DNA of 64,000 nucleotides from Candidatus Bipolaricaulota bacterium (GTDB lineage Bacteria; Bipolaricaulota; Bipolaricaulia; UBA7950; UBA9294): positions 206 to 64,205 of the forward strand of contig JANQGM010000011.1 of assembly GCA_028277345.1 (NCBI GenBank), in the 5' to 3' direction. This document shows, in pieces, positions 3,760 to 27,681 of the stretch. Each line of letters opens with the position of its first letter. Positions within the stretch are counted from its first letter, which is position 1. Below the pieces are notes generated by a model. That model did no database searches and was not told where the DNA came from. It saw only the letters and a list, made by a program, of their open reading frames with translations. The position numbers and the translations under genes are program-made.

Positions 3760-4400
3760 GCCCTCGCAAGCGGCTCCTTCCAATAATCAAATGAGCCGCC
3801 AGTTGCCGATGGCTGGGAACTCTTCGAGTTCCGACGAGCACATCATCTCTTGGACTGTGCTCGTGTTCGTTTAGGAGCTTGATGGCGAAGCATCTTACGA
3901 CGACATCACAATTAGCCTCGCCTGTCTAGAAAACGGCAACTAGGCCATGAGCCAGTTGCTGGGGAGAAGCTTCCAGCTTCTCCGATCCACGCTCTTTCAA
4001 TATCGACATGAGGCGTTGGCAGCGCATGCAAGTATTAGAAGGCGCTGTCTACGACCGCATCAAGTCAACGACTGCGTTCGAAATACGTTGTCGATCCCGA
4101 GGACACTCAAAGACTTGATGTCCTCGCCAAGCAACTAGCCCTTGGCATAGTTGCCAGACCCTTCCAATGGTTACATGGGCAGCCAATGGCCGGGAACTCT
4201 TCGAGTTCCTACGAGCACATCATCTCTTGACTGTGCTCGTGTCCGATCAAGAGTTGAACGGCGAGGCCAGCTACGACGACATAAAATAAGCATCGCATGC
4301 CTCATCAACCTTGGGTAGCCCATACACGAGGACGATCAGAGACTTGATGTCCTCGTCGCGGCTCCCCCGATCGTTGAATGAGCCGCCACTCGTAGCGCGC
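3760..4400. repeat. Cluster of REP/MITE-like hairpin modules in a ~1-kb gene-poor 3' intergenic region; includes ~110-bp imperfect direct repeat (3795-3916 vs 4179-4291) each containing tandem hairpins GGAACTC-ttc-GAGTTCC and CGAGCACA-N13-TGTGCTCG
   Basis: Seen directly: near-identical segments 'gggaactcttcgagttcc(g/t)acgagcacatcatctctt(g)gactgtgctcgtgt' at both sites; module 'agacttgatgtcctcg..gcaact' recurs at 3760, 4111, 4340; core 'gttgccagacccttccaatggttacatg' at 4150. Confidence 0.6.
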
Positions 4401-5397: not shown

Positions 5398-6990
5398 ATG
5401 AAGAGATTGGACGCAAGGACACTCACAGTGGCGACAGCTCTTGTCGTGACGCTTGCCATCGCCGGACTCGGCCAACGCGTGGGGACGCACGACGATTTCG
5501 ACCTCACCGCCGTCATCGAAGAAGCTTACTGGTATTCGCGCTACAACCTCGGTCATCTCACCATGCGCGCCGGCATGGGAGACACCTTCATGCCGGATAT
5601 GGAGATGGTCGAGATGATGATCGCCATGGCCGACGCCGATCCGGCTGACGGCGACATCGTCAGCCCTCCAATGAATCCCGCGCTGCTCAAGAGCGTGTTC
5701 GCCTCAGGAGAACCGTTCTGGACACAGCCCGCCGCCCCCTCAGATTTCGCCACCTTGCGGTGGGATCCATCGACCTTCGATACCCGCGTCACCGGGTCCG
5801 CCCTAGGGTGGACGATCCTGAAGGAGTTGGAGTGGGCCAAGCAGTTCCACATCGACTGGCACTTCGGGACCGTGGACGATGACTTCGGAGCCCAATGGCG
5901 GTTCATGGGACTGGTTCTGACCGCAATGGCCGAAATGCAGGCGCTGGATTGGATCGAACGCCATGCCGCCGGAGAGATGACGATGGTCGACAAATCCGAC
6001 CCGTTCGTCATGCTGATGGCCCTCTCCAGCCTCGCCGATGTGCTCGGCGCCGACGCCATGCCGCATAGCCGGTCCAATCGCTACTACGATCCCGAAAGCG
6101 CCGCGCTCTTCAGGCGCGTTGCCAACGAGCAGTTCGATCGCGTAGTCGTAATCCCGAGTGAGAGCATGACGGTCAAAGAACTGGCCACCGCCATCCAAGG
6201 ACTGGTGTGGTATGCCTCTATCACTGCGGATCAGGGTCGGCATCGCCGGGCGTTGGATCACATCGCGACGTTGGGAGAGCTGCTACGCGAGCGTTCGGCA
6301 TTGACAGCGGCGGCCAAGGGCTACGCCATCCGCGGCCTCATCGAGGTCTTCCGCGTCCTCGATGATCGCGACGCCCTGAATGCAGCCGATCGCTTGGTCG
6401 AGGAACTCTCGATGGACTATGACGAGGACTACGGCATCTTCAGATCCCAGTTGAACTACTCGATCGATGATGTCGCCGCCATCGTCGGCGGGCTGAACGC
6501 CGCCATGCTGCATGGCGATGTGCACGGTGCGCTGGCGGAAAAGCTGCTGGTCGGATTCTTCGAAGCGGCCGTCAATCTCAGTGGACTTCAGCTGAGTGCG
6601 CCTCCTGCGGAAGCCGGGAAGAGCGCCTTTGAGCTTGGAGCGCCCGACCTTTATTACCGCTATCCCACCCTTCCGCTTCCCGGAGAGGTGGGAGACTACG
6701 GCGTCGCTCCCGTCACGGCGTCATCGGTCGCGTTTGATCCCAGCTCGAACACATGGACCGTCACGAATACCCGCTTTGATACCGCCGGCGCCATGCATGC
6801 GGCCAACGAGTTCATCTGGCTGCATGCCAACCAGGTCAACGGCTTCCCCATCGTCGGCGAGCGGGCGCACACAGAGCCGATGTCAGCGCAAACCGAGGAG
6901 AGGACCCGGCTTCCGTTGCTGGTTCGTCTCATCGGCCACGTGGGCCTCGTTTTGCTGGTGGCGCTGCTTGTGACCATGATTCGAGATTAA
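5398..6990 (+). CDS. Hypothetical exported/membrane-anchored protein (N-terminal signal/anchor, C-terminal TM helix)
   Basis: 530 aa; RBS GGAGG before ATG; N-terminal hydrophobic segment and C-terminal LIGHVGLVLLVALLVTMI helix; no recognizable catalytic motif. Confidence 0.55.
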   Translation: MKRLDARTLTVATALVVTLAIAGLGQRVGTHDDFDLTAVIEEAYWYSRYNLGHLTMRAGMGDTFMPDMEMVEMMIAMADADPADGDIVSPPMNPALLKSVFASGEPFWTQPAAPSDFATLRWDPSTFDTRVTGSALGWTILKELEWAKQFHIDWHFGTVDDDFGAQWRFMGLVLTAMAEMQALDWIERHAAGEMTMVDKSDPFVMLMALSSLADVLGADAMPHSRSNRYYDPESAALFRRVANEQFDRVVVIPSESMTVKELATAIQGLVWYASITADQGRHRRALDHIATLGELLRERSALTAAAKGYAIRGLIEVFRVLDDRDALNAADRLVEELSMDYDEDYGIFRSQLNYSIDDVAAIVGGLNAAMLHGDVHGALAEKLLVGFFEAAVNLSGLQLSAPPAEAGKSAFELGAPDLYYRYPTLPLPGEVGDYGVAPVTASSVAFDPSSNTWTVTNTRFDTAGAMHAANEFIWLHANQVNGFPIVGERAHTEPMSAQTEERTRLPLLVRLIGHVGLVLLVALLVTMIRD

Positions 6991-12483: not shown

Positions 12484-12540
12484 AGAACGGCCTCACGAGC
12501 TTCGCCGTTCTCACAAGCTGGCCCTTCATTGGTGACATGG

Positions 12541-12660
12541 CCAGCCGATGTCCTCGAAAGCAACGCCCTCCAGTATTCACATGCGTTGCCGTTGCCAGAC
12601 CCTTCCACAAGGACAGTTAAAGAATCGATGTCCTTGCAAGCAATGCGAAGCATTGCCACT
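12541..12660. repeat. Copy of dispersed REP-like element (two GATGTCCTCG..GCAA modules flanking GTTGCCAGACCCTTCCACAAGGACAG)
   Basis: Shares core with elements at 4111, 9623, 25580. Confidence 0.55.
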
Positions 12661-12741: not shown

Positions 12742-13587
12742 GTGTGGTGTATGATTGATCGAGGAGGATTTACATACGTGGCGGTCAAAAGACGTATCTT
12801 CGAGATCCTAGAAGTAGCCCATGTCGGCGATTTGGCGAGCCGCTGGTTTGATGTATTCATCATTGGCCTGATCGCACTAAACGTGCTAACACTCATTCTG
12901 GGCACCGTTCCGTCATTGCATGGTGCCTATCAGGTTTTCAGGATCTTCGAGATTATCTCTGTGATTGTCTTCACCATCGAGTACGCGCTGAGATTGTGGA
13001 CCTGCAAGGAGAATCCGGATGTAACACTCAAGCGGTTTCCCCGGCTACGTTTCGCAGGTCGAGGAATGTTGATCATCGATCTCATGGCCATCCTTCCGTT
13101 CTACATTGCGTTGCTAGTACCAGCGGCGAGAGCGCTTGACTTACGTGTATTGCGAGCGATTCGCCTCACTCGCATCTTCCGGCTGTTCAAGTTAGGTCGG
13201 TACTCGGAATCGCTCAAAATCATGGGCAAGGTTTTTCGTGCCAAGCGTGAGGAATTAGGTATCACCGTCTTCGTACTCGTGATTCTCCTGATCATCGCTT
13301 CGTCGCTCATGTATTTCATTGAGAACCCAGGCCAGCCAGACGCCTTCTCCAGCATTCCAGCCTCGCTGTGGTGGGGGGTTGCGACCCTGACAACCGTCGG
13401 GTACGGCGATATTGTTCCCTTGACTGCACTCGGCAAAGCACTGGGAATGATTATTGCAGTACTTGGAATCGGACTTTTCGCTCTGCCTGCAGGCATTCTC
13501 GGTTCCGGTTTTGTCGAAGCTTTCGGTAGTTCCAAAGGCGAGCAACTGGTTTGCCCGCACTGCGGAAAAGGGATCCGAATGTCATGA
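12742..13587 (+). CDS. Voltage-gated potassium channel (Kv-like; S1-S4 sensor with RxxRxxRxxR S4, pore TVGYGD), C-terminal CxxC tail
   Basis: Selectivity filter TTVGYGD, S4 'RVLRAIRLTRIFRLFKLGR'; stop TGA overlaps hsdR ATG (ATGA). Confidence 0.85.
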   Translation: MWCMIDRGGFTYVAVKRRIFEILEVAHVGDLASRWFDVFIIGLIALNVLTLILGTVPSLHGAYQVFRIFEIISVIVFTIEYALRLWTCKENPDVTLKRFPRLRFAGRGMLIIDLMAILPFYIALLVPAARALDLRVLRAIRLTRIFRLFKLGRYSESLKIMGKVFRAKREELGITVFVLVILLIIASSLMYFIENPGQPDAFSSIPASLWWGVATLTTVGYGDIVPLTALGKALGMIIAVLGIGLFALPAGILGSGFVEAFGSSKGEQLVCPHCGKGIRMS

Positions 13588-16433
13588 CCACACCGGAAGA
13601 ACGCGCAAGAGAAACTATCGACGCCAAGCTCGCCGAGTCAGGTTGGGTCGTTCAATCGCGAACAGAGATCAATCTCTCTGCTGGCCCAGGCGTCGCCATT
13701 CGCGAATTCCCGATGGCCAACGGCACGGGCTATGCTGACTACCTTCTCTTCGTGAACGCCGAAGCAGTAGGCGTCCTCGAAGCCAAACCTGAAGGACACA
13801 CACTCACCGGAGTCGAGATCCAGACTAATGACTACACCAATGGCTTCGCCTACGACATTCAAACGCCGATCGAGCCACTTCCTTTCCGTTATATCAGCAC
13901 GGGGACGGAAACCATCTTCTGGAACCATCTCGATCCTCACCCTCGCAGCCGAGAGATCTTCCAGTTTCATCGCCCGGACACACTGAAGGAATGGATCGGC
14001 TTCGAGAAGCTTCCGGAATGGTGCAGCGATTGGCATCCACAAGAGGGGCCCTATGCACCAGATCCAAGCTATCCATCGTCGTTGCGATCCAGGATTCAGA
14101 CGCTGCCCTCAGTCAACAAGAGCACACTCTATCCCAACCAGCTGCAAGCGGTTCAGAATCTCGAAGCATCACTCAAAGCCGATCACCCGCGAGCACTCAT
14201 TCAGATGGCCACTGGCTCCGGCAAGACAATCATGGCCATCACTGCCGTCTATCGTTTGATCAAATACGGTGGTGCTCGCCGCATTCTGTTCCTCGTCGAT
14301 CGCGGCAATCTGGGCGAGCAGGCTGAGAAGGAGTTCGCAAACTTCGTCACGCCTGACAGCAACCGCAAGTTCACTGAACTCTACAACGTCCAGCGACTTC
14401 TATCGAACACCGTCGGCTCGTCAACCAAAGTCGTGATCTCAACGATTCAACGGTTGTACTCAATGCTCAAGGGCGAGCCCGAGTTCGATCCAGCAGACGA
14501 GGAACAATCCCTTTATGGAGCCGGAATCGATGAGAAACGCGAACCCTGGCCGGTGGTCTACAACGAGACCATTCCCCCCGAGTATTTCGATGTCATCGTG
14601 ATCGACGAGTGTCATCGCTCCATCTACTCCGTCTGGCGGCAAGTGCTCGACTACTTCGACGCCTACCTCATCGGCCTTACTGCCACTCCGGCGAAGCACA
14701 CGTTCGGCTTCTTCAAGAAGAACCTCGTCATGGAGTATCGACACGAGGATGCCGTCGCCGACAACGTCAACGTCGATTTCGAGGTCTACAACATCCGTAC
14801 CAGGATCTCGCAAGAAGGCGCAACGCTCAAAGCATCTGAGACGCCTGCCATCGGCATTCGCGATCGACAAACCCGCGCCGTGCGCTGGGAGCAACCGGAT
14901 GAAGACATCGAATACGCAGGCAAGGATCTCGACCGATCGGTGGTTGCCGAAGACCAAATCCGCACCATCCTCACGACTTATCGAGACAAGGTGCGAACCG
15001 AAATCTTTGCAGGAAGGAAGCACGTCCCGAAGACTCTCATCTTCGCCAAGAGCGATGCACACGCCGAAGACATCGTCCGAATCGCGCGCGAGGTCTTTGA
15101 GAAGGGCAACGACTTCATCCAGAAGATCACCTACAAGACCACAGGCGCGAAACCCGCAGACCTGATCCAGCACTTCCGCAACAGCATGTATCCACGTATC
15201 GCTGTCACCGTGGACATGATTGCTACCGGCACCGACATCCGGCCCATCGAGGTCGTGATGTTCATGCGCATGGTCAAGAGCCGGGTACAGTTCGAACAGA
15301 TGAAGGGACGCGGCGTTCGCATCATCGATCCCAACGAACTGAAATCGGCCACGCCCGATGCCGAAGCCAAGACGCACTTCGTCCTGGTCGACTGTGTCGG
15401 CGTGACCGAGAGTAAATCACGCGATACACAGCCACTTGAGCGTAATAAGTCGATTGCCTTCAAAGCGCTGCTCGAACACGTTGCCCTTGGCGGCACGAAT
15501 CCCGACATGCTCAGTTCGCTGGCCAGTCGTCTCGCGCGACTCGATAAGCAATGTGACGAGAAGCAGCGCGCACACTTGACTGAAGTCGCTGGGGGCAAGC
15601 GTCTCTCGGAAATCGACCACGCTATCATCCGCGCGCTCAATCCCGATGAGCATGAAGCGAGAGCCCGGCAAACGCACGGGCTGAGCGAAGGCCAAGAACC
15701 GTCTGAAGGCCAGCTCGAAGCGGCTCGGCGTGAATTGCTGAAGGAAGCGGCAGAGCCGCTGGCCACCAACCCCGAGCTACGTAAGACATTGATCGAGACC
15801 AAGCGTTCGTTCGACCAGATCATCGATGACATCAGCCTCGACGAGTTGCTCAAAGCCGGTCCGTCTGTCGATGGCACCGAGAAGGCAAAGACTATTATCG
15901 CGTCGTTCGAGGAATTCCTAGCTACCCACAAGGATGAGATCGCCGCGCTTCAGTTCTTCTACGCTCAGCCGTACGGCAAGCGATTGACCTACGACGATAT
16001 CAAGACGCTACACGAAGCGATCCAAGCACCGCCACGATTGCTGACGCCCCAAAAGCTGTGGGCGGCGTACAAGACGCTGGAGGCCAACAAGGTTCGCGGT
16101 GCGAGCGCCCAGCGGCGATTGACCGACATTGTCAATCTTGTCCGTTTCGCGCTGCATCAGGCCGACGAGTTGGTACCCTATCCGGACGAAGTAGAATCTC
16201 GTTTCGAGAAGTGGCTCAATCTACAAGAAGCTCGGGGGCGATCGTTCACGTTGGAGCAGAAGCGGTGGCTGGTGATGATTCGCGATCATATTGCACAGAG
16301 CTTGGAGATCGACTTCGGTGATTTCGATTTCGTGCCGTTCAATGCCGAGGGCGGCATCGGCAAGGCTCGGGAGTTGTTTGGGACGGAGCTGAGGGCGCTG
16401 ATGGATGAGCTAAATGGGGTGTTGGTGTCGTGA
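13584..16433 (+). CDS. hsdR: Type I restriction enzyme R subunit (HsdR)
   Basis: HsdR_N domain (ETIDAKLAESGW...ADYLLF), SF2 helicase motifs (MATGSGKT, DECH as VIVIDECHRS, SAT-like, QxxGRGxR as KGRGVRI). Confidence 0.9.
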   Translation: MTTPEERARETIDAKLAESGWVVQSRTEINLSAGPGVAIREFPMANGTGYADYLLFVNAEAVGVLEAKPEGHTLTGVEIQTNDYTNGFAYDIQTPIEPLPFRYISTGTETIFWNHLDPHPRSREIFQFHRPDTLKEWIGFEKLPEWCSDWHPQEGPYAPDPSYPSSLRSRIQTLPSVNKSTLYPNQLQAVQNLEASLKADHPRALIQMATGSGKTIMAITAVYRLIKYGGARRILFLVDRGNLGEQAEKEFANFVTPDSNRKFTELYNVQRLLSNTVGSSTKVVISTIQRLYSMLKGEPEFDPADEEQSLYGAGIDEKREPWPVVYNETIPPEYFDVIVIDECHRSIYSVWRQVLDYFDAYLIGLTATPAKHTFGFFKKNLVMEYRHEDAVADNVNVDFEVYNIRTRISQEGATLKASETPAIGIRDRQTRAVRWEQPDEDIEYAGKDLDRSVVAEDQIRTILTTYRDKVRTEIFAGRKHVPKTLIFAKSDAHAEDIVRIAREVFEKGNDFIQKITYKTTGAKPADLIQHFRNSMYPRIAVTVDMIATGTDIRPIEVVMFMRMVKSRVQFEQMKGRGVRIIDPNELKSATPDAEAKTHFVLVDCVGVTESKSRDTQPLERNKSIAFKALLEHVALGGTNPDMLSSLASRLARLDKQCDEKQRAHLTEVAGGKRLSEIDHAIIRALNPDEHEARARQTHGLSEGQEPSEGQLEAARRELLKEAAEPLATNPELRKTLIETKRSFDQIIDDISLDELLKAGPSVDGTEKAKTIIASFEEFLATHKDEIAALQFFYAQPYGKRLTYDDIKTLHEAIQAPPRLLTPQKLWAAYKTLEANKVRGASAQRRLTDIVNLVRFALHQADELVPYPDEVESRFEKWLNLQEARGRSFTLEQKRWLVMIRDHIAQSLEIDFGDFDFVPFNAEGGIGKARELFGTELRALMDELNGVLVS

Positions 16434-17968
16434 GGAACTTCGTTCCGGCTGGCTGGAAAATCGCAGAGCTCGATTCGGTAGCTGGGATCACGCTCGGCCA
16501 AAGCCCTCCGAGCTCGACGTACAACACGGTCGGAGACGGGCTACCGTTCTTTCAGGGGAAGGCTGAGTTTGGGGCGCTGTCACCGACCCCAGTCAAGTGG
16601 TGCTCAGCCCCGGTCCGTGTTGCTCATCCCGGAGATGTGCTGATCTCGGTTCGTGCGCCGGTCGGCCCTACGAACTTGGCGGACACAGAATGCTGCATAG
16701 GACGTGGCCTGGCAGCGATCACGCCTCTTGGGGGTATGCCGTCCAAGTACTACCTCTACTACCTTCGTCACTCCGTTGAAGAACTGGTGCGTCAAGCAAC
16801 GGGCTCAACGTTCCAAGCCATCAACGGCAAGCAGCTCCGAGCCCACACAACCCTCGTCCCACCGCTTCCCGAGCAGCGCCGCATCGTCGAGACGATTGAG
16901 TCGCATCTGACGCGGCTCGATGATGCTGTTGCCTCGCTGGAGCGTGTACAGCGGAACCTCGAACGCTATCGCGCATCCGTCCTCAAGGCCGCCGTCGAAG
17001 GCCGCCTCGTCTCCACCGAAGCCGAACTGGCTCGCCAAGAAGGCCGAGACTATGAGACTGCCGACGTTCTCCTCGAACGCATTCTCGCCGAACGCAAGAC
17101 CCGCTGGATCGGAGACGCCGCCGAGAAGTCCCGCGCCAAGGCCGAAGCAAAAGCCCTCAAGGCGAGCAAGCCTTGGACTCTCGAAGACAAAGCCAAGGCG
17201 CGGGTGACCGCCGAAACCAAGTATAAGGAGCCACAGGCACCCGACACCACCGACCTCGCAGACCTCCCCGAAGGCTGGTGCTGGACCACGATCGACATCA
17301 CATCGAAGAATCATTCCCGTTCGATCTGCGCGGGCCCATTCGGGACGATCTTTAAGGCGAAGGATTTCCGGCCTGAGGGTGTTCCTATCATCTTCCTGAG
17401 GCATGTGAAGCCAGATGAGTACAGAAGGGGGAAGCCCACCTACATGGATCGCGCCAAGTGGGATGAGCTCTTTGAGCAGTACTCGGTCTTCGGGGGGGAA
17501 CTGCTGGTGACCAAGCTGGGTGATCCCCCTGGGGAGTGCGCTGTCTTCCCTAGGAGCGAAGGGACTGCGATGCTCACGCCTGACGTGATGAAGCTTGAGG
17601 TCCACAGAGAGTTGTCACCTCGCTACATCATGCACTACATGAACTCCCTGATCGCAAAGCAGTTCGCGTTCGGTGTCGCATTCGGCACAACGCGGCTCCG
17701 CCTCACGCTCCCCTTGTTCAGATCGCTCCTCGTCCCCATCCCACCGCTTGACGAGCAGGATCGGATTGTCGAGGCAGCGGATCGTCAGCTCTCGCTCGCC
17801 AAGAGCCTCGAGGACGAGGCCGAGATGGGCCTGCGTCGGATCGGCAGACTGCGGCAAGCGATTCTCAAGTGGGCCTTCGAGGGGAAGCTGGTCGAGCAGG
17901 ATCCAGCTGACGAGCCCTCGTCGGCGCTCTTGGATCGGATCCGATCGAGGGAAGCAGGTGCTGGATGA
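16430..17968 (+). CDS. hsdS: Type I restriction-modification specificity subunit (HsdS), two TRDs with conserved central and C-terminal coiled-coil repeats
   Basis: Duplicated TRD architecture and conserved 'LPPLxEQxRIVexxd' repeats after each TRD; GTG overlaps hsdR stop. Confidence 0.85.
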   Translation: MRNFVPAGWKIAELDSVAGITLGQSPPSSTYNTVGDGLPFFQGKAEFGALSPTPVKWCSAPVRVAHPGDVLISVRAPVGPTNLADTECCIGRGLAAITPLGGMPSKYYLYYLRHSVEELVRQATGSTFQAINGKQLRAHTTLVPPLPEQRRIVETIESHLTRLDDAVASLERVQRNLERYRASVLKAAVEGRLVSTEAELARQEGRDYETADVLLERILAERKTRWIGDAAEKSRAKAEAKALKASKPWTLEDKAKARVTAETKYKEPQAPDTTDLADLPEGWCWTTIDITSKNHSRSICAGPFGTIFKAKDFRPEGVPIIFLRHVKPDEYRRGKPTYMDRAKWDELFEQYSVFGGELLVTKLGDPPGECAVFPRSEGTAMLTPDVMKLEVHRELSPRYIMHYMNSLIAKQFAFGVAFGTTRLRLTLPLFRSLLVPIPPLDEQDRIVEAADRQLSLAKSLEDEAEMGLRRIGRLRQAILKWAFEGKLVEQDPADEPSSALLDRIRSREAGAG

Positions 17969-18486
17969 GTAATCAGGAACTCAACGCCGCACGCGAGCGG
18001 GTCGACTCAAAGCTACGGTATGCCTACGTCATGCAGGCTGATCTCCGCGGGATGCCTCGACGCGGAAGTGACGACGAACGTGCTCATCAGGAGGCGTTTC
18101 TCTTCCACCTGCTGGGTACACGAGATGCTTTGCTCCAGGAGATGAACGTATTCTACGGTCTGGGGTTGGATAGGAAGTCTGTGAGCATTGGCTCCATCCG
18201 CGACGGGCTTGCCGCCGCAGGCAAGTCGTCCGGTGCACTCACGAAGCTCGTCGCGATCGAGAGCGATTCCTCAAGTTGGCTGAACTGCGCCAAGGACATG
18301 AGGAACCATGCAACACATCGCGCCAATGTGGGCCGACACTTCTATCAGGGCGGCCCGAAGAGCGGTCAGGCATCACTGAGAGACACGAGAACGGGCAAGG
18401 AGATCGATAAGGACTATGTTGACCTTCACGATGACTGGCTAAACAAAATGGGCAAACTCGTGACAGACCTGAGAACCCTGATGTAG
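17965..18486 (+). CDS. HEPN-like (DUF4145-like) protein inserted between hsdS and hsdM
   Basis: 173 aa, predicted all-helical; C-terminal Rx4H motif (RNHATHR) typical of HEPN RNase superfamily; ATG overlaps hsdS stop (ATGA). Family assignment is inference. Confidence 0.5.
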   Translation: MSNQELNAARERVDSKLRYAYVMQADLRGMPRRGSDDERAHQEAFLFHLLGTRDALLQEMNVFYGLGLDRKSVSIGSIRDGLAAAGKSSGALTKLVAIESDSSSWLNCAKDMRNHATHRANVGRHFYQGGPKSGQASLRDTRTGKEIDKDYVDLHDDWLNKMGKLVTDLRTLM

Positions 18487-18494
18487 GAGGGACA

Positions 18495-20033
18495 TTGGCG
18501 GACAACAGCAACGGCGCACTCGCAGCGAAGCTCTGGTCCTACTGCCATCTGCTCCGCGACGATGGACTGAGCTACCAGGACTATCTCGAGCAACTCACTT
18601 TCCTGCTCTTCCTCAAAATGGCTGAAGAGCGCGAAAACATGACTGGGGAACCGACGCCGATTCCCGAAGGCTATCGGTGGAGCAACCTATCAGCACCGGC
18701 GATGACAGGCGAGAAGCTGGAGGCGCATTACCGCAAGACTTTAGAGGAACTAGCCAAAGCATCGGGTATGCTCGGGCTTATCTTCCGCAAGAGCCAGAAC
18801 AAGATTCAGGACCCGGCCAAGCTGCGCCAACTCATCATCGAACTCATTGGTAAAGAAGACTGGCTATCCATGACGTCCGACGTGAAGGGCGATGCCTACG
18901 AGGCGTTGCTGGAACGGAACGCCCAGGACACAAAGTCAGGCGCAGGCCAGTACTTCACCCCTCGCCCGCTGATCGATGCTCTCGTGGACTGTGTCCAGCC
19001 ACATCCGGACGAGGTCGTGTGCGATCCGGCCTGCGGTACCGGAGGCTTCCTACTCTCGGCCTATCAGTTCATGAGCAAGGGCGAGCTTGATCGGGATGAG
19101 AAGCGACATCTGAAGTACCACGCGCTTCGGGGCGTAGAACTTGTGGATGGCGTCAGCCGCCTCTGCGCGATGAACCTCTTCCTTCACGGCATCGGCCCGG
19201 ATGACGGCGAGTACGAGCCACCCATTCGCACCGACGACAGCCTGCGTAATGAACCAGCAGAACACTACCCGGTCGTCGTCACAAATCCGCCATTCGGGAA
19301 GAAATCGAGCATCACCATCGTCAATGAAGCGGGAGAGACCGACAAACAGGCAATCAGCTACAACCGTCCTGACTTCTGGACCACAACCACCAACAAGCAA
19401 CTCAACTTCGTCCAGCATATCAAGAGTCTGCTTGCCCAGAACGGCCGCGCCGCTGTCGTCGTGCCCGACAATGTGCTCTTCGAAGGTGGCGCGGGCGAGA
19501 CCGTGCGGCGGAAGCTGATGCACGAGTGTAACCTCCACACCATCCTGCGCCTGCCAACCGGCATCTTCTATGCCCAAGGCGTGAAAGCGAACGTCATCTT
19601 CTTCGAGCGCAAGCCCGCCAGTGAGACACCGTGGACAAAGACCGTCTGGATCTACGATCTACGCACCAACAAGCACTTCACCCTCAAGCAGAACCGTATG
19701 AAACGCGCCGACCTCGACGAGTTCGTTGCCTGCTACAACCCCGAGAACAGGCACGAACGAACGCCGACCTGGTCCGAGGGGAATCCTGATGGCCGCTGGC
19801 GCGCCTATGCCTACGACGAAATCATCGCCCGCGACAAGGCTAGCCTCGACATCTTCTGGCTCCGCGACGAAGGCCTCGAAGATAGCGCCAACCTCCCAGA
19901 TCCCGACATCCTCGCCGCCGAAATCATCGAGGACCTCCAATCCGCCCTTGAAGAACTCCAGGCCATCTCTGTCGACCTCGCCCAAACCCCAGGAGCTCAA
20001 GAAAGGAGAAGAAATGCAAACACCTCCCAGTAG
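18495..20033 (+). CDS. hsdM: Type I restriction-modification N6-adenine DNA methyltransferase subunit (HsdM)
   Basis: HsdM_N domain, SAM motif I (DPACGTGGFL), motif IV NPPFG. Confidence 0.9.
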   Translation: MADNSNGALAAKLWSYCHLLRDDGLSYQDYLEQLTFLLFLKMAEERENMTGEPTPIPEGYRWSNLSAPAMTGEKLEAHYRKTLEELAKASGMLGLIFRKSQNKIQDPAKLRQLIIELIGKEDWLSMTSDVKGDAYEALLERNAQDTKSGAGQYFTPRPLIDALVDCVQPHPDEVVCDPACGTGGFLLSAYQFMSKGELDRDEKRHLKYHALRGVELVDGVSRLCAMNLFLHGIGPDDGEYEPPIRTDDSLRNEPAEHYPVVVTNPPFGKKSSITIVNEAGETDKQAISYNRPDFWTTTTNKQLNFVQHIKSLLAQNGRAAVVVPDNVLFEGGAGETVRRKLMHECNLHTILRLPTGIFYAQGVKANVIFFERKPASETPWTKTVWIYDLRTNKHFTLKQNRMKRADLDEFVACYNPENRHERTPTWSEGNPDGRWRAYAYDEIIARDKASLDIFWLRDEGLEDSANLPDPDILAAEIIEDLQSALEELQAISVDLAQTPGAQERRRNANTSQ

Positions 20034-20508
20034 TCCCCAACTCAACGGATACCAAGAATCACTGGAGCTGGTAAGGTATGAGGGGAGCCTACTGTGGCAG
20101 ATCTTTGGAGCGTTTCTGCTTGCACACACAGTCTTCCTTGGGTTTGCTTTGAGCCTCGCTCTCACTGAAGACGCGCTTGCTCAGTGGCAACTGGGATCGT
20201 TCCTTCTCGGACTCATGGGCCTTCTTCTTTGCCTGCCCTGGTGGTCGTGTTTCCGGCGCAATTCCATCTACTACATCTTTCGCATGGCACAAGCCCGGGA
20301 GAAGGAACCGGTGGGATGGGATCTTGTCGCGGGCAAGGGGAAGAGACTCGCCGAGGGGGAGTGTGTACAGGTTGGAGGTGAATGCCATCAGATCCGCGGT
20401 GTTTCACGATGGCTTCGTACCAGAAGAGCCGTTCCGCTCCTGATCATTGCCTTTGCGTTGGCGTACGCTTTCGTGGTCGCTGCGAGTGGTCCCTGGTGGA
20501 TCAAATGA
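20014..20508 (+). CDS. Small 3-4 TM membrane protein, translationally coupled to hsdM (start overlaps hsdM 3' end)
   Basis: 164 aa from ATG 20014 with AAGGAGAAGAA RBS; three hydrophobic helices; longer ORF-track start (19726) rejected because it overlaps hsdM in another frame. Confidence 0.55.
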   Translation: MQTPPSSPQLNGYQESLELVRYEGSLLWQIFGAFLLAHTVFLGFALSLALTEDALAQWQLGSFLLGLMGLLLCLPWWSCFRRNSIYYIFRMAQAREKEPVGWDLVAGKGKRLAEGECVQVGGECHQIRGVSRWLRTRRAVPLLIIAFALAYAFVVAASGPWWIK

Positions 20509-20562
20509 TGTGCTTTCGTGGATTCCCTACTGGCAGAGCCCTGAAATCTCAAGGAGACCGAG

Positions 20563-21492
20563 ATGCTGATATCAGAGGCTGAGCAGTACCACGCTGCACC
20601 TTTCGAGTCAGAGGCCGAGCTCGAGCAGGTTGTTTGGGAGAACTCGGAACTCCTCTTCGGCGCAAACGCCATCTTCCTTCCCAAAGCTAAGATAGGAATC
20701 TCAAGCAAGGCTCAGACAATCCCGGATGGATTCGCCATCGACCTTGAGTCCAATCGCTGGTTCATCGTTGAAGCCGAGTTGGCGTCTCATGGAACCTGGC
20801 ACCACATCGCGCCTCAGATCTCCAAGCAGGTCACTGCACTTGAGGCTCCAGAGACTCGCGAGAAAATCCTGGGAATGGCTCTGGCCGCGATTCAGGATGA
20901 TGAGCAGGTCAAAGACGCGATCGCGGATCTGGGCATCCCTGAGATTGAGATTCACGGCAGGCTACAAGCAGTCTTGAGGAAGCCACCAGTCGTCGCCATC
21001 CCTATCGATGCTGTTCCAAGAGACCTTGAATCTTGGACACGCTCACTCAAGTACGATGTGCAGACGTGGATTATCGAGAAGTACGTCACGCTCGACGGCA
21101 CGAAGGTCATGTACTCCCTGCCTGAGCAGAACAGACCAACGATTCCAACACCTCGTGACGACGGGAACTCCGGCTCCACAGGCACGCAGCCCTATGCGGA
21201 TCTTCTCAATGCTGAGATGATCCAGGTCGGGCAGAAGGTGCACATGAAGTACGGCCCGAAGAGCGGACGCAAGGAGATTTTCCACGGCCTCTTGCGCGAA
21301 GAGGGTGTAGAAGTCAATGGGCGGGTCATGTCACTCAGCACCGCCGCACTGCTTTGCATTCGAACGATCAACCCTGCGCGCAAATCCGTCAATGGCTGGA
21401 AGAAATGGAAGACTGAGGACGGCGATACCCTAAACGAGATCTATGCAAGATACGAACAGCAGGCTGCAGAAACCGAGAAAGAGAGTGACTAG
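20563..21492 (+). CDS. Two-domain hypothetical protein: N-terminal PD-(D/E)xK-like nuclease core (IPDGFAID...WFIVEAEL), C-terminal ~100-aa domain of unknown function (KYGPKSGRKE...GRVMSLSTAALLCI)
   Basis: Motif-level resemblance to restriction-endonuclease fold; defence-island context. No catalytic Lys unambiguously placed. Confidence 0.5.
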   Translation: MLISEAEQYHAAPFESEAELEQVVWENSELLFGANAIFLPKAKIGISSKAQTIPDGFAIDLESNRWFIVEAELASHGTWHHIAPQISKQVTALEAPETREKILGMALAAIQDDEQVKDAIADLGIPEIEIHGRLQAVLRKPPVVAIPIDAVPRDLESWTRSLKYDVQTWIIEKYVTLDGTKVMYSLPEQNRPTIPTPRDDGNSGSTGTQPYADLLNAEMIQVGQKVHMKYGPKSGRKEIFHGLLREEGVEVNGRVMSLSTAALLCIRTINPARKSVNGWKKWKTEDGDTLNEIYARYEQQAAETEKESD

Positions 21493-21536
21493 CAAGTACA
21501 AGTTCTCGAATCGACTGCATTGGATGTAAGACCCTG

Positions 21537-23018
21537 ATGATCACTGCATCAATGCTCTATAGCTTCTCGTGCTGCCCACACCGGGTTACGCTCGACCTAT
21601 TCGGAGATCCTACTGTGAGGGATCCCATCAGCCCTTTCGTTCAACTGTTTTGGGAGCGGGGGCATGCCTTCGAGGTTGACACCATCAAGAACCTCGGAGT
21701 TCCCTTTCTCAACCTGCGTGATGTCCCGCTTGCCGAAAGAGAGGAATTGACCTCGCGCGCCATGGTGCAGGGGGAAGAGCTAATCTATGGAGGCCGGATC
21801 TCTCATAGCAATTTGCTCGGTGAGCCCGATCTCTTGCGGAAGACAGATGACGGCTATATCCCAGGCGACATCAAGAGCGGAGCAGGTTTGGAGGGCACGT
21901 CCGAAGAGGTGACCGGCAAACCCAAGAAGCAGTACGCTCTGCAGCTCGCGCTGTATTCCGACATCCTGCAAAGAAAAGGGTCAGCACTCACCCGCGATTC
22001 CTTCATTTGGGATATCCATGGGCAGGAAGTTGTCTATAACCTTTCGGAGCGTCGTGGCCCCAGAACACCTCACACCATGTGGGAGGAGTATGAGGACGCG
22101 CTGGAGACAGTCACCGGCATTTCGAAGAAAGCGGTCGAGACTCAGCCCGGATTGATCGGTGAGTGCAAGCTTTGTCCATGGCAAAGCCACTGCCGCCGGG
22201 AAATCCTGCGAGCGGATGATCTGACCTTGATCACGAGCCTCGGCCTGAGCAAACGATCCGGATTCCCTCCTGAGATTCGCACGGTTCAGGCCTTGGCGGA
22301 TGCCGATATCGAGACGTACATCCAAGGAAAGAAGACAGCGATTCCTGGGATTGGCGCGAACACCTTGCGGACCTTTCATGCCCGCGCCGTACTGCAGAAA
22401 ATGCCTAATGCAATCCCCTATTTCACAGACCCGGTCGACCTTCCCAGGTCTCCCATCGAACTATTCTTCGATATCGAAACCGATCCATTCCGCGATCTCT
22501 GCTATCTGCACGGTTTCGTCAAACGCGAACATGGGAACAACGATTCGGAAGAATTCATTGCGTTCACGGCTGATGAAACCACCCCAGAGCAGGAGAAGGC
22601 AGCTTTCGCTCAAGCGTGGGAATTCGTTCAGGAATACAGCGATGCCTTCGTCTATTACTACTCACACTATGAGCGAACGACGTGGAAGAAGCTGGCCCGA
22701 CGCTATCCGGATGTAGCATCCGAGGACGACGTGATAGCCCTGTACGAGCAGCCGCGCTTCGTTGATCTGTACAATGATGTCGTGCGATCGAAGATGATCT
22801 GGCCCACGCATTCCCTGTCCATCAAGCCGTTGGCCAAGTCCATCGGATTCCAATGGCGAGACACTGATCCTTCTGGAGCTGCATCGGTTCAGTGGTTCAA
22901 TGACTGGGTGGAGTCCGGCAACGTAACCATCTGGAATCGCATCCTCCAATACAACGAGGATGACTGCCGAGCCATGCGCATCCTCGCCGATGAACTCCGA
23001 CGATTGGAAAGCTCGTAG
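21537..23018 (+). CDS. RecB-family nuclease, TM0106 type (Cas4-like N-terminal PD-(D/E)xK with Fe-S cysteines + C-terminal RNase H-like exonuclease domain)
   Basis: N-terminal Cys (SCCPHRV), DIK motif, C-x2-C-x5-C (CKLCPWQSHC), HhH-like segment, then 'LFFDIETDP' RNase-H-like acidic motif. Confidence 0.75.
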   Translation: MITASMLYSFSCCPHRVTLDLFGDPTVRDPISPFVQLFWERGHAFEVDTIKNLGVPFLNLRDVPLAEREELTSRAMVQGEELIYGGRISHSNLLGEPDLLRKTDDGYIPGDIKSGAGLEGTSEEVTGKPKKQYALQLALYSDILQRKGSALTRDSFIWDIHGQEVVYNLSERRGPRTPHTMWEEYEDALETVTGISKKAVETQPGLIGECKLCPWQSHCRREILRADDLTLITSLGLSKRSGFPPEIRTVQALADADIETYIQGKKTAIPGIGANTLRTFHARAVLQKMPNAIPYFTDPVDLPRSPIELFFDIETDPFRDLCYLHGFVKREHGNNDSEEFIAFTADETTPEQEKAAFAQAWEFVQEYSDAFVYYYSHYERTTWKKLARRYPDVASEDDVIALYEQPRFVDLYNDVVRSKMIWPTHSLSIKPLAKSIGFQWRDTDPSGAASVQWFNDWVESGNVTIWNRILQYNEDDCRAMRILADELRRLESS

Positions 23019-23076
23019 CTCCTCATCGTGCGGGCTATCAGGTGACAAGGGTGCATAGGTAAGTATTGTAGACAAA

Positions 23077-23107
23077 ATGCATACGATCGTATACGATAAG
23101 CATACGG
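23077..23107. promoter_or_regulatory. Operator-like palindrome ATACGATCGTAT flanked by GCATACG direct repeats, immediately upstream of wHTH-nucleotidyltransferase gene
   Basis: Seen in sequence (aaatGCATACGATCGTATACGATAAGCATACGgtg); likely autoregulatory site for the wHTH domain. Confidence 0.4.
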
Positions 23108-23116
23108 TGATAAAGC

Positions 23117-23713
23117 ATGCTCACAAAGCTGTTTGGATCGAATGCGCGCGTCAAGGTTCTAGAGCTCTTTGCGCTCAATGCTAGCAGCGAGTTCTACCTA
23201 CGCGAGATCGCGCAGCGGACAGGCCTAGCACTTCGATCTGTGCAACGAGCCGTAGAAGACCTCACAGAGATACACATTCTGATTCGAGAGAAGCGTGGTA
23301 ACGCCGTCTATTTCCGGCTGAATGGTGAGAATCCCATTACCGAGGACTTGAAGTCGATACTGCTGAAGACCGTCGGGCTCGCTGACCTGATTCTCGCGGA
23401 GCTAGGAGCCGAGTCGAGGATCGATGTGGCATTCATCTTCGGATCGGTCGCGAAGGGCGAAGAGCTGCCAACCAGCGATATCGACATCGCACTCGTTGGG
23501 GACATCCTTTCTCGCAGGCTCGCGGACCTTGTTGAGCGCCTCGAACAGAAAACGAAGAGGGAAGTTAACATTACCCCGTTCAGCTGCGAGGAATGGGGGG
23601 AGCGGATCTCGGCGGGTGATCACTTCGCGACAACACTACTCAGAGAGCCGAAGATCATGCTGCTCGGCCACACGAAGGAGCTGAAAACACTTGGGAGGGC
23701 GAATGAATCCTAG
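23117..23713 (+). CDS. Winged-HTH + nucleotidyltransferase (MNT-type, GSxxxG...DIDIAL) antitoxin-like protein
   Basis: N-terminal wHTH (ArsR-like), minimal NTase motif FGSVAKGEELPTSDIDIALV. Confidence 0.75.
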   Translation: MLTKLFGSNARVKVLELFALNASSEFYLREIAQRTGLALRSVQRAVEDLTEIHILIREKRGNAVYFRLNGENPITEDLKSILLKTVGLADLILAELGAESRIDVAFIFGSVAKGEELPTSDIDIALVGDILSRRLADLVERLEQKTKREVNITPFSCEEWGERISAGDHFATTLLREPKIMLLGHTKELKTLGRANES

Positions 23714-24005
23714 GATGCAGCCCACTTCGTCTGCCGAGATCAAAAGCTTGATGGCTATCGTCGAGCGCGATCTGCGGCAAGCAGATCTTCCTGGACTGCA
23801 TTCTGATGGGGTCTTTGGATTTCTCTACAACGCAGCTCTTTAGCTGGCAACAATCCTGGTCCGGCTCGAAGGTGAGCGATTTGGAGGCGCAGGCCACCAT
23901 CGTGAGTCGATTCGCCGTGCCCGCGACCTTGTTACTGACGACCTGAGTTCGGCGATCATTGTGTTCGAAAACATCACGACGGAAGCGCAACGCGTCGGTC
24001 TATGA
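23703..24005 (+). pseudogene. Candidate toxin-partner ORF downstream of MNT, interrupted by in-frame amber stop (TAG at 23841-23843); possibly degenerated HEPN-type protein
   Basis: ATG overlaps MNT stop; 46 codons, TAG, then 53 more sense codons in the same frame (LATILVRLEGERFGGAGHHRESIRRARDL...). HEPN assignment is inference from position only. Confidence 0.35.
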
Positions 24006-24408: not shown

Positions 24409-25554
24409 ATGCCACAGCCGGGACGCTGGATCGAGCTCCCCGAAGGATACACTGTATTCCTTCCCGAGCCTTTGCCCCCATCGTTTGACTGGACGACTCG
24501 GCTGATCAACGCACTGTCGGATGCGGACCGCGCTGTAGGGCGTTTGGCCGGAGAGGGACGCCGTCTGCCCAACCCCCACATTCTCATCCGCCCGTTTGTG
24601 GCCCGAGAGGCCGTTCTGTCGAGCAAGATCGAAGGAACACAGGCCACGCTGGGAGAATTGCTCGCTGCGGAAGCCGGCGCTGTCGTCAATCACAGCCCTG
24701 ACGATCTTCGTGAAGTTGCCAACTACGTCGTTGCGTTGGAACACGGCATGGCCCAACTGGACACCACCGGCTTGACCGTGGAGTTGCTTCGCGAGGTTCA
24801 TGCCAAATTACTGGTCGGTGTGCGAGGAGAACACGCCCGCCCCGGCGAGTTCAGAGACAGGCAAAACTGGATTGGGTTGCCCGGCTCAACTCCGCACACC
24901 GCCGTCTTCGTTCCGCCTCCGCCCGGAGAGGTTGCCTCGCTACTGGAGTCCCTCGAGCGCTTTCTGCAGCAAGAATCGCTTCCTCCGCTTGTCTCGATTG
25001 CACTTGCCCACTACCAGTTCGAAGCCATCCATCCCTTCCTCGATGGAAACGGCCGGGTGGGGCGGTTGTTGATTACGCTCTTCTTCCATGCGCGCAAGGT
25101 GCTCCCCTCGCCGCTTCTGTACCTAAGCGCATTCTTCGAAGCATCGCGCCGAGAGTACTACAGCGAACTTCGCGCCGTCTCAGAGCAGGGGGTTTGGGAG
25201 GACTGGTTGGTCTACTTCCTCAACGGAGTGGCCCGCCAGTCTGAGGATGCCGTCGATCGCTCCACACGGATGCTCGCGTTGATGGATACGTGGCGGTTGC
25301 GGGCCGCTGCGCTGTCGTCAGATACACCGTTGCGCGTGCTGGAGTTACTCGCCGGCAATCCCTTCCTAACCGCCGCCGGAGTCGAAGCTCAACTCGGCGT
25401 CGCACGGTCAACCGCCGCGAGAGCGATCACGCGCCTCGTCGAGCTAGGAATCGTCGAACCCGCAGACGAGCGCCAACGGGATCGCGCCTACTGCGCGCGC
25501 GCGTTACTGAAAATCCTGGAAGAGCCGACGAGATTAGAGATTCGGCACCCCTAG
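24409..25554 (+). CDS. Fic family protein (AMPylator-type; HPFxDGNGR motif) with C-terminal wHTH
   Basis: Fic motif HPFLDGNGRVGR; Fic_N-like N-terminus; GAGGAG RBS. Confidence 0.9.
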   Translation: MPQPGRWIELPEGYTVFLPEPLPPSFDWTTRLINALSDADRAVGRLAGEGRRLPNPHILIRPFVAREAVLSSKIEGTQATLGELLAAEAGAVVNHSPDDLREVANYVVALEHGMAQLDTTGLTVELLREVHAKLLVGVRGEHARPGEFRDRQNWIGLPGSTPHTAVFVPPPPGEVASLLESLERFLQQESLPPLVSIALAHYQFEAIHPFLDGNGRVGRLLITLFFHARKVLPSPLLYLSAFFEASRREYYSELRAVSEQGVWEDWLVYFLNGVARQSEDAVDRSTRMLALMDTWRLRAAALSSDTPLRVLELLAGNPFLTAAGVEAQLGVARSTAARAITRLVELGIVEPADERQRDRAYCARALLKILEEPTRLEIRHP

Positions 25555-25579
25555 CCTATACCATTCGGCCCGAGCACGA

Positions 25580-25644
25580 TGGCAGCGCATTTGACCACAT
25601 AAGGCGCTGCCAGACCCTTCCATTGTTACATGCGCTGCCATACC
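25580..25644. repeat. Copy of dispersed REP-like element (GCTGCCAGACCCTTCCATTGTTACATGCGCTGCCATACC)
   Basis: Matches core of 4150-4190 element. Confidence 0.5.
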
Positions 25645-27143: not shown

Positions 27144-27182
27144 AGGTCATACTCATGGCCGATACAAGCCAACACTCAGTTG

Positions 27183-27349
27183 TCACACAGTGTCGGCAGT
27201 GGGTGCAAGAAGGTGGCCGCCCATGCTTGCACGGCGGGGGCGGCTTGTGAGAACAGCGCACGCCAAATCCCGTTCTCATAAGGCGGTGACTTGCACCCTC
27301 TGCTGCCGCTAATTAATCGTCACGCAGTGTCGGCAGTGGGTGCAAGAAG
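27183..27349. repeat. 32-bp direct repeat TCAC(A/G)CAGTGTCGGCAGTGGGTGCAAGAAGGT (27183-27214 and 27318-27349); second copy is the 3' end of the VOC gene
   Basis: Seen in sequence; indicates local partial duplication. Confidence 0.6.
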
Positions 27350-27681
27350 GTTTGGAGCTCGATGTTGCGGCCTTCGGGGTCTTTGCCGAAGAAATTATAG
27401 ATGCGGTACGTGACGTTCTCTCGAGGCTCGGTCGTCGCCCATTCCTTCAGCTTCACATACATCGCGTCGACATCTTCCCGAGTGTCGTAGAAGAACGTCA
27501 GCAGTGAATCGATGTCGGCGTCCGGTTGGCGATGTAGGCCGACAAGCAGATTGCCGAATCGAAGAATGCTGATGTCGGGCTGTTCAAGCCAAACCGTCAT
27601 CCCAACGCGTTCAAGATAGAACGCCTTCACGGCGTCAAACTGCGCGGTCCTGACGAATACGATGCCTCCAGCCATGAACAT
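27313..27681 (-). CDS. VOC/glyoxalase-like family protein
   Basis: 122 aa, beta-alpha-beta-beta-beta VOC pattern. Confidence 0.7.
   Translation of the reverse strand: MFMAGGIVFVRTAQFDAVKAFYLERVGMTVWLEQPDISILRFGNLLVGLHRQPDADIDSLLTFFYDTREDVDAMYVKLKEWATTEPRENVTYRIYNFFGKDPEGRNIELQTFLHPLPTLRDD

Follow-up and report, generated by a model that had tools for sequence, protein, structure and literature searches.

Organisation of the locus

The 64,000-nt stretch of DNA analysed here (contig JANQGM010000011.1 of a Candidatus Bipolaricaulota bacterium; hereafter the window) contains a run of ten genes that follow one another closely and without interruption on the + strand, from 12742 to about 24005, and that include a complete type I restriction-modification (RM) operon (Table 1). 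Gene identities were obtained from profile searches (Pfam, PADLOC and NCBIfam). The profile and PADLOC matches bear out the proposal of an initial annotation that this is a composite defence locus. All the open reading frames (ORFs) on which that proposal relied are present on the + strand, and nearly all of its domain calls were correct (HEPN-like, two-domain PD-(D/E)xK, TM0106/Cas4-like, and a winged helix-turn-helix (wHTH) nucleotidyltransferase with a degenerate partner). A SoFic gene, absent from its gene list, extends the island past 24005. A 10.5-kb gene string was identical in independent assemblies of two sequencing runs.

The overlapping junctions also agree with the initial annotation. 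That between the potassium channel gene (Kch) and hsdR is an ATGA, read directly from the DNA. Overlaps of 4 nt between hsdR and hsdS (16430 vs 16433) and between hsdS and the following 173-amino acid (aa) gene (17965 vs 17968) are implied by the ORF coordinates. The gene for a three-transmembrane (3-TM) protein overlaps hsdM by 20 nt, with an AAGGAG located 5 nt 5' of its ATG. Beyond the 3-TM gene the successive gaps are 54, 44 and 98 nt. Terminator candidates were no commoner than in shuffled sequence and none was found between the 3-TM, RAMA nuclease and TM0106 genes; a promoter scan did not rise above shuffled expectation, and searches of the window for tRNAs and Rfam families found none. 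Comparison with related loci suggests that the run is probably a defence island on a type I RM scaffold, which comprises a clade-specific HEPN-like gene, one cargo gene in a socket at the end of hsdM, and further independent solitary genes.

Table 1. Position of the genes, repeats and junction discussed in the text (window coordinates)
Feature	Position	Strand	Profile match or remark
REP-like palindromic element, left of block	12503..12607	.	shares GCCAGACCCTTCCA..TTACATGG.CAGCC with copies near 4014-4188 and 25579-25641
Voltage-gated-type K+ channel (Kch), C-terminal CPHCG	12742..13587	+	Ion_trans 1.6e-37; phrog_7872 4.7e-49; stop overlaps hsdR start (ATGA)
hsdR, type I restriction subunit, EcoAI/EcoEI-like	13584..16433	+	ResIII, SWI2_SNF2, Helicase_C, EcoEI_R_C, HSDR_N; PADLOC REase_I 5.4e-48
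hsdS, two target-recognition domains	16430..17968	+	Methylase_S in two stretches; PADLOC Specificity_I 2.7e-72
173-aa HEPN-like protein, DUF6586-related	17965..18486	+	invariant R113-x4-H118
hsdM, N6-adenine methyltransferase subunit	18495..20033	+	N6_Mtase 1.2e-68, HsdM_N; PADLOC MTase_I 9e-194
Conserved hsdM 3' end, predicted translational-coupling socket	19905..20016	+	AAGGAG 20003-20008, cargo ATG 20014-20016; DNA alignment
164-aa 3-TM protein, putative 8xMP family member (PF24838)	20014..20508	+	overlaps hsdM by 20 nt
309-aa protein, putative NucS-like PD-(D/E)xK nuclease domain + C-terminal RAMA, solitary defence-type	20563..21492	+	RAMA a predicted N6-methyladenine (m6A) reader
493-aa TM0106-family protein	21537..23018	+	Cas4/RecB-like Fe-S nuclease + RNase H-fold (DEDD-like) domain
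wHTH-nucleotidyltransferase, PDC-M05A (MntA-like)	23117..23713	+	PADLOC 2e-48; NCBIfam MntA-like 8e-10
Decayed, frameshifted PDC-M05B partner	23691..24005	+	PADLOC 6.9e-08, model positions 15-55/146
Three 32-nt palindromic repeats TATGATCGATA...TCGATCATAA	24224..24399	.	spacing 72 nt; directly upstream of SoFic
SoFic-type Fic protein, C-terminal wHTH	24409..25554	+	PADLOC SoFic 1.1e-114 over full length; Fic_N, Fic
REP-like palindromic element, right of block	25579..25641	.	inverted repeat; 18-mer common with 12590 and 4149

The type I RM core and its embedded HEPN-like gene

By its domain content, the core of the locus is an EcoAI/EcoEI-like type I RM operon organised as hsdR-hsdS-HEPN-hsdM: HsdR combines a nuclease N-terminal domain with an SF2 translocase, and HsdM and a two-domain HsdS are encoded in the same operon. 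The RM complex would, as usual, methylate self DNA and restrict unmodified DNA. The operon was compared with 80 metagenome loci carrying the closest HsdM relatives (57-90% identity). Where all three subunits were detected, the order on one strand is invariably R-S-M (37/37 loci), so that the R-S-X-M arrangement, initially considered atypical, is the norm of this subfamily. This order and the embedded 173-aa gene are, on this comparison, inherited features of one RM clade. DNA homology among the related operons starts at the hsdR ATG, with unrelated sequences 5' of it, and the ATGA is part of the 5' end of hsdR itself. HsdS shows an identity of just 38-59% in related loci whose HsdM is near-identical. 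The conserved spacer regions of hsdS genes permit shuffling of target-recognition domains, and a 40-nt direct repeat inside hsdS (16852-16891 and 17734-17773, 78% identical, spacing 882 nt) represents the usual spacers between these domains.

The 173-aa protein encoded between hsdS and hsdM gave sub-threshold Pfam matches alone, to HEPN_Cthe2314 (20 bits for a cutoff of 27) and to DUF6586, and no match in PADLOC, NCBIfam or PHROGs. The motif R-x4-H (R-x4-6-H) is the signature of HEPN domains. In the segment R113-N-H-A-T-H118 it is invariant across 28 aligned homologues, and the alignment also keeps K16, Y19, E43, E59 and W105. The AlphaFold model is confident (pLDDT 88). The protein can be described as HEPN-like, the motif being present and the predicted fold suggestive. 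A word-seeded search retrieved 31 relatives, and an exhaustive profile search matched 490 of 1.84 billion cluster representatives; the family is therefore uncommon.

Homologues of 43-87% identity are located between hsdS and hsdM in loci L092, L095, L177, L178, L179, L186 and L188-191. Since the gene occupies this position in seven of the eight distinct informative loci of the closest clade (HsdM at least 81% identical), it can be considered to belong to the RM system. It is absent from every compared locus whose HsdM is less than 78% identical. One close RM relative, L094, has no homologue, and the gene is therefore dispensable for RM itself. A distant family member (44% identity) is solitary and lies in a mobile-element-like context without RM. 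The R-S-HEPN-M operon of L178 (Thermotogota metagenome-assembled genome JBDKUT010000045.1; HsdR 68%, HsdM 81% and HEPN-like protein 64% identical) is part of a dense toxin-antitoxin/defence island.

PrrC is a HEPN-type anticodon nuclease encoded inside the EcoprrI hsd operon, where it is silenced by the RM complex and unleashed by the T4 Stp peptide (PMC3710099; bioRxiv 10.1101/2024.01.29.577857). As for PrrC (and RloC), the gene described here, which encodes a HEPN-like protein, is nested among hsd genes, inherited with the RM system and devoid of an antitoxin of its own; by the same analogy, silencing is probably exerted by the RM complex and triggering by a phage anti-restriction protein (PMC3710099; bioRxiv 10.1101/2024.01.29.577857). 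Unlike PrrC, the protein is a bare HEPN-like domain of 173 aa, without the N-terminal ABC-type ATPase and without sequence similarity to PrrC, and its gene is placed between hsdS and hsdM of an R-S-X-M operon. The protein may thus work like PrrC without being a member of the PrrC family. It would be a latent RNase restrained by the RM complex, and a phage that disables restriction would release it, following the logic of PrrC/EcoprrI minus the ATPase domain of PrrC.

The strict co-inheritance of the gene with the RM clade, its translational coupling on both sides and the absence of any antitoxin-like partner could also point to a non-catalytic RM subunit or regulator, acting in assembly, restriction alleviation or expression rather than as a toxin-like RNase, and the statistical weakness of the HEPN assignment leaves room for such a role. 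This alternative is nevertheless considered rather unlikely: an invariant R-x4-H with conserved acidic and histidine residues is typical of catalytic HEPN domains, the protein diverges much faster than HsdM (43-87% vs 81-90% identity), and both the solitary relative in a mobile-element context and the operon of L094 show that the gene and the RM system can exist without each other. The preferred reading for this protein is that of a latent RNase under the restraint of the RM complex.

A cargo position at the 3' end of hsdM

Alignment of the hsdM 3' ends of six loci revealed DNA that is strongly conserved up to ...CAAGAAGGAGAnnnnnATG and unrelated directly after the ATG of the following gene. 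In the alignment this ATG is at one and the same position in five loci, and the sixth, L095, has a TTG there. A coupled ORF (at least 90 aa, with its start no more than a few tens of nt from the hsdM stop) is present in 28 of 75 informative loci, and sequence comparison divides these ORFs into 23 clusters. The position is filled by the 3-TM gene in the window and in L186, by a DUF4268 protein (PADLOC PDC-S11) in L092, by an Mrr_cat protein (PADLOC PDC-S02) in L177, by a 449-aa protein with no assigned family in L188-190, by a 369-aa protein, likewise without family, in L178, and by a multi-TM protein with a K-channel pore in L095; an AbiJ-like protein is also among the post-hsdM cargoes of related loci. 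On this alignment, unrelated genes are swapped at a Shine-Dalgarno (SD) sequence and ATG situated inside the conserved hsdM end, and it is this position that the 3-TM gene fills here. A second slot with variable content lies between hsdS and hsdM; in relatives it holds AAA_13, GmrSD_N, Schlafen/AlbA_2, HipA_C, DUF3800, Mrr_cat or an IS200-like gene.

The cargo of L095 (L095:7098-8042, Ga0307380_10010664) is a 314-aa multi-TM protein with an Ion_trans_2 match and the pore sequence TSVGFGD; its gene starts inside the last codons of an hsdM whose product is 84% identical to that of the window. Outside the pore it shares no homology with the window channel, and searches of PADLOC and of plasmids gave no match.

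Type I RM, BREX and DISARM operons often hold embedded defence genes (bioRxiv 10.1101/2024.01.29.577857). The variable genes within and after the RM operon are consistent with this published pattern, to which the present locus adds a precise junction for the appended position; no description of an SD and ATG junction within a conserved hsdM 3' end was found in the literature consulted. As in the embedded systems recognised through "guilt by embedding", unrelated defence-type genes vary inside and at the end of an RM operon, and several of them match PADLOC candidates (PDC-S11 and PDC-S02 behind hsdM in relatives, PDC-M05 in the window). The HEPN-like and 3-TM genes, unlike known embedded candidates, have no PADLOC model. 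Recombination at the conserved hsdM end would bring in successive add-on genes, which would be co-transferred with the RM scaffold.

The 3-TM, RAMA and TM0106 genes

The three genes that follow hsdM were proposed in the initial annotation to form an RM-associated accessory module, and each was therefore followed in other genomes. The first encodes the 3-TM protein (TM segments 26-52, 60-78 and 136-163), which matches Pfam 8xMP with 24.5 bits, below the cutoff of 30; a precomputed PF24838 match exists for most of its 44 homologues. A sequence search against the PDB gave no significant match. Its closest homologue (67% identity, in L186) overlaps the 3' end of an 85.5%-identical hsdM in an R-S-HEPN-M-3TM operon, and nucleotide identity with the window (77.6%) is continuous across hsdM and the 3-TM gene. 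L186 is the only other diverged locus in which this coupling was found, and neither the RAMA nuclease nor TM0106 lies behind its 3-TM gene. Relatives of about 50% identity occur in unrelated, non-defence settings, one beside radical-SAM and AFOR genes on a Thermococcus contig, another with kinases and an acyltransferase as neighbours.

The second gene encodes the 309-aa protein, whose C-terminus gave a RAMA profile match and fits the RAMA fold. Its conserved acidic residues E17, E19, E21, D55, E70 and E72 are compatible with a nuclease site, and weak PADLOC matches, to PDC-S14 and PDC-S57, are confined to the RAMA domain. In nuclease fusions of RM systems, RAMA has been proposed to read N6-methyladenine (PMC4738411); fusions of RAMA with a nuclease have been suggested as type IV candidates, and the m6A preference of RAMA is disputed (PMC11037411). 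The protein resembles type IV enzymes that join a reader to a nuclease (winged-helix/SRA fusions), with RAMA and a putative PD-(D/E)xK-fold nuclease in these roles (PMC4738411, PMC11037411). Its order, an N-terminal nuclease, a helical linker of about 100 residues and a C-terminal RAMA, is unlike that of the GIY-YIG-RAMA and RAMA-Mrr-NTPase fusions (PMC4738411, PMC11037411). By analogy it would be a type IV-like endonuclease that reads modifications and works on its own.

Members of the family (at least 447) occur in many phyla of bacteria and archaea. A tblastn survey of 80 genome loci with 10-kb flanks found an HsdM-like gene near the RAMA nuclease in just four, and a relative of the 3-TM, TM0106, channel or HEPN-like protein within 10 kb in none. 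The 598 neighbouring ORFs formed 563 clusters, that is, no conserved neighbour was detected. Immediate neighbours with a length of 100 aa or more (n=110) are mostly housekeeping enzymes, with a minority of defence genes (methyltransferases, HNH, AbiEi, PDC-S11 and others). In this survey the pattern is the signature of a solitary, mobile, defence-island-prone gene, and its solitary state in most genomes is as expected for a type IV-like enzyme that needs no cognate methylase. A 75%-identical homologue (L083) abuts the hsdM of an unrelated EcoR124-type RM system in the order R-S-AAA_13-M-RAMA. In L086, a BREX locus (PglX, AbiEi/AbiEii, PglZ, BrxL), a 38-aa HsdM C-terminal remnant (L086:9892-10005) lies directly 5' of the RAMA homologue (63% identity). 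The remnant is 79% identical to residues 471-508 of the window HsdM and looks like the footprint of a cassette transfer. The 3-TM and TM0106 genes are absent from both L083 and L086.

The third protein belongs over its full length to the TM0106 family of RecB-like putative nucleases (TIGR03491, 244 bits for a cutoff of 97; residues 2-485 aligned with model positions 1-460 of 462). The Pfam matches are PDDEXK_1 and RNase_H_2, and, as in that family, a Cas4-like Cys cluster is combined with a C-terminal RNase H-fold domain. No significant match was obtained in a sequence search against the PDB. The protein stands alone here, whereas on plasmids TM0106 is usually the N-terminal portion of a protein of about 1100 aa, encoded next to a WYL regulator. 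On the plasmids L172-L174 it takes up the first ~490 aa, and the neighbouring genes are those for WYL regulators, HEPN/DUF3883 genes or SbcCD-like pairs, a setting that hints at a larger, uncharacterised nuclease system. A phage origin was considered and rejected, as viral contigs contained no relatives and PHROGs gave a weak Cas4-like match only. TM0106 was absent from all RAMA, 3-TM and hsdM comparison loci.

That these three genes constitute one dedicated module, restriction-enhancing or causing abortive infection together with the RM system, is thus highly improbable. They lie on the same strand with short gaps and no terminator seen between them, in a string assembled identically in two samples; tight spacing and co-orientation in a single genome are, as this case shows, no evidence for a module. 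None of the three is found downstream in the 80 loci with the closest hsdM genes. Together with the absence of 3-TM and TM0106 relatives from the 80 RAMA loci, the separate occurrence of the 3-TM gene in L186 and of the RAMA gene in L083 and L086, and the housekeeping contexts of some 3-TM homologues, this indicates that the trio is not conserved, and the idea of a module is largely refuted by distribution. The scatter in non-defence contexts that the initial annotation had named as telling against its proposal was looked for and found, among the ~50%-identical 3-TM homologues and the mostly housekeeping RAMA neighbours. What stands of the proposed coupling to hsdM concerns single genes: the 3-TM gene (in L186) and the two closest RAMA homologues follow hsdM or its remnant, whereas the trio does not do so together. 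As the genes are found individually in the post-hsdM position, they are best described as interchangeable cargo.

The potassium channel

The product of the first gene of the run has the features of a six-TM voltage-gated-type channel, with a TVGYGD filter and conserved S4 arginines (R138, R141, R144, R147 and R153), and is full length when compared with plasmid homologues. Truncation by insertion of an RM cassette was considered and rejected, as the C-terminal YCPHCG is shared with homologues, one of which has its end at the same place. Evidence for its inclusion in the defence locus is divided: the ATGA junction with hsdR speaks for it, and a channel does not precede hsdR in any of the roughly two dozen relatives whose sequence extends far enough upstream. 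A functional link of the channel to RM therefore appears unlikely, and the channel would be an accidental neighbour, co-transcribed through juxtaposition, rather than a component.

Homologues of the channel are found on plasmids and phages. Those on halophile and Salinibacter plasmids lie among ion-transport genes. On plasmids of Salinibacter ruber, Aristaeella lactis and Hymenobacter sp. (L182, L183 and L185) the identity is 40-47%, and plasmid homologues recur beside DUF4236 proteins (twice) and DUF4011/DUF3320 helicase-type proteins (twice). One of the homologues has a DUF2779 protein nearby; this family matched the TM0106 protein weakly. A 50%-identical copy is carried by Halorubrum virus Humcor1.

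These data also bear on a wider proposal, that the membrane proteins are real partners of the RM system, the channel and/or the 8xMP protein serving as a depolarising effector on restriction failure or anchoring RM where DNA enters. Coupling of the channel to hsdR, retention of the hsdM::3-TM junction in two diverged loci, the start of a different K-pore protein gene inside the hsdM end of L095, and membrane cargo in three of the eight distinct loci of the closest clade would all agree with it, as would the presence of channel homologues on plasmids and phages and of REP-like elements on either side of a block that takes in both channel and island. It is nonetheless improbable, given that the channel is not found upstream of hsdR in relatives and its plasmid homologues often lie among ion-transport genes, that 8xMP homologues occur without any RM, that membrane proteins make up only 2 of the 23 cargo clusters, and that the channel, the 3-TM protein and the L095 K-pore protein have no PADLOC match. 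Accidental juxtaposition is thus preferred for the channel, and occupation of the socket for the 3-TM gene. A literature search on 8xMP, TM0106, DUF6586 and K+ channels in defence islands found nothing relevant.

Downstream genes, repeats and flanks

The PDC-M05 genes behind TM0106 are, on their profile matches, a decayed MNT/HEPN-type pair: PDC-M05A is intact, and in PDC-M05B the first ~50 codons (23691-23843) match and are followed by a stop, with no match beyond. The degenerate partner noticed in the initial annotation is thus real. SoFic membership of the next protein is supported by PADLOC, and the NCBIfam equivalog match is below its cutoff (159 vs 550 bits). In L178 a 68%-identical SoFic gene lies on the other side of the related RM operon, on the opposite strand. 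The three 32-nt repeats end 10 nt before the SoFic start codon and look like operator sites, possibly for the C-terminal wHTH of SoFic itself.

The REP-like element at 12503-12607 also pairs with 27215-27258. An 18-nt direct repeat at 12590 and 25605 was examined as a possible att duplication, a candidate weakened by a third copy at 4149. In view of this third copy the 18-mer belongs to the dispersed REP-like element; it has three matches in the window and none in shuffled sequences. Further to the right, a 33-nt direct repeat (27182-27214 and 27319-27351, 97% identical) flanks the right arm of a 44-nt inverted repeat, the other arm of which is at 12503-12546; the 27182-27351 region contains small ORFs only.

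Both flanks of the island, which lies on a 183-kb contig of a metagenome-assembled genome, are housekeeping-like, with genes for RecQ, MFS, EamA, an EpmA-like class II tRNA-synthetase homologue and homoserine dehydrogenase upstream, and for MsrA and a GNAT acetyltransferase downstream. RecQ, the EpmA-like homologue and homoserine dehydrogenase appear to be of bacterial type. A 530-aa ORF without Pfam match (5398-6990) lies among the upstream housekeeping genes. A Logan contig break at about 12665 was considered as an alternative junction or island boundary and discarded, since a contig of another sample covers hom-channel-hsdR.

Assembly of the island and functional implications

The organisation described here is of a known kind, exemplified by PrrC and by "guilt by embedding"; what is new is the set of candidate passengers, several of them uncharacterised. 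The type I RM operon with its HEPN-like gene would be the inherited scaffold, the 3-TM gene its socket cargo, and the RAMA nuclease, TM0106, the decayed PDC-M05 pair and SoFic independent genes behind it, as far as can be judged from sequence. In the E. coli immigration control region, hsdRMS adjoins mrr and mcrBC. The window resembles that region in having a type I RM operon flanked by solitary, putatively modification-dependent nucleases, and the Mrr_cat genes directly 3' of hsdM in relatives and the predicted reader-nuclease fusion of the window both recall it. The differences are that the follower is translationally coupled to hsdM or within ~50 nt of it, and that the window has a RAMA reader with a NucS-like nuclease, not Mrr.

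Several points weigh against the picture of a scaffold with independent passengers. All the evidence for it comes from sequence, structure prediction and gene context. The HEPN membership of the 173-aa protein depends on the motif and on fold matches that are not significant: HEPN proteins rank first in Foldseek with a best E of 0.33, HEPN_Cthe2314 stays below its cutoff, and a sequence profile search against the PDB gave no significant match. Context look-ups for the 3-TM and HEPN families were small samples (n=3 and n=4). The active site of the 309-aa nuclease reads D...ExE instead of the canonical D...ExK, and its catalytic competence is therefore not assured. Retention of hsdM::3-TM in a second, well-diverged locus could reflect a real functional tie rather than cargo, and in L095 a K-pore membrane protein different from the window channel is coupled to hsdM. 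The channel itself is intact and overlaps hsdR through the ATGA, with no separate RM promoter evident, and two copies of the dispersed REP-like element (core GCCAGACCCTTCCAnTGGTTACATGGnCAGCC) bracket the whole channel-to-SoFic block. A defence island of largely independent genes nevertheless remains the probable interpretation.

A more ambitious possibility, which we regard as speculative and rather doubtful, would make the RM complex of this clade a general sensor platform, with effectors plugged in at the hsdM socket and the S-M slot and with their stoichiometry and activity tied to RM integrity. If this were true, HEPN RNases, small membrane proteins, K+-pore proteins and reader-nucleases would be pluggable effectors and the PrrC principle would be generalised; the 8xMP protein, and perhaps the K+ channel, would then be HsdM-controlled membrane effectors or anchors.

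For the probable reading, the implications are more modest. A small HEPN-like family that is absent from PADLOC and NCBIfam and steadily embedded in one RM clade could represent a minimal PrrC-like back-up of restriction. The start codon inside the conserved hsdM end would be an exchange point for unrelated genes and, if general, could provide a bioinformatic hook for harvesting new defence genes.

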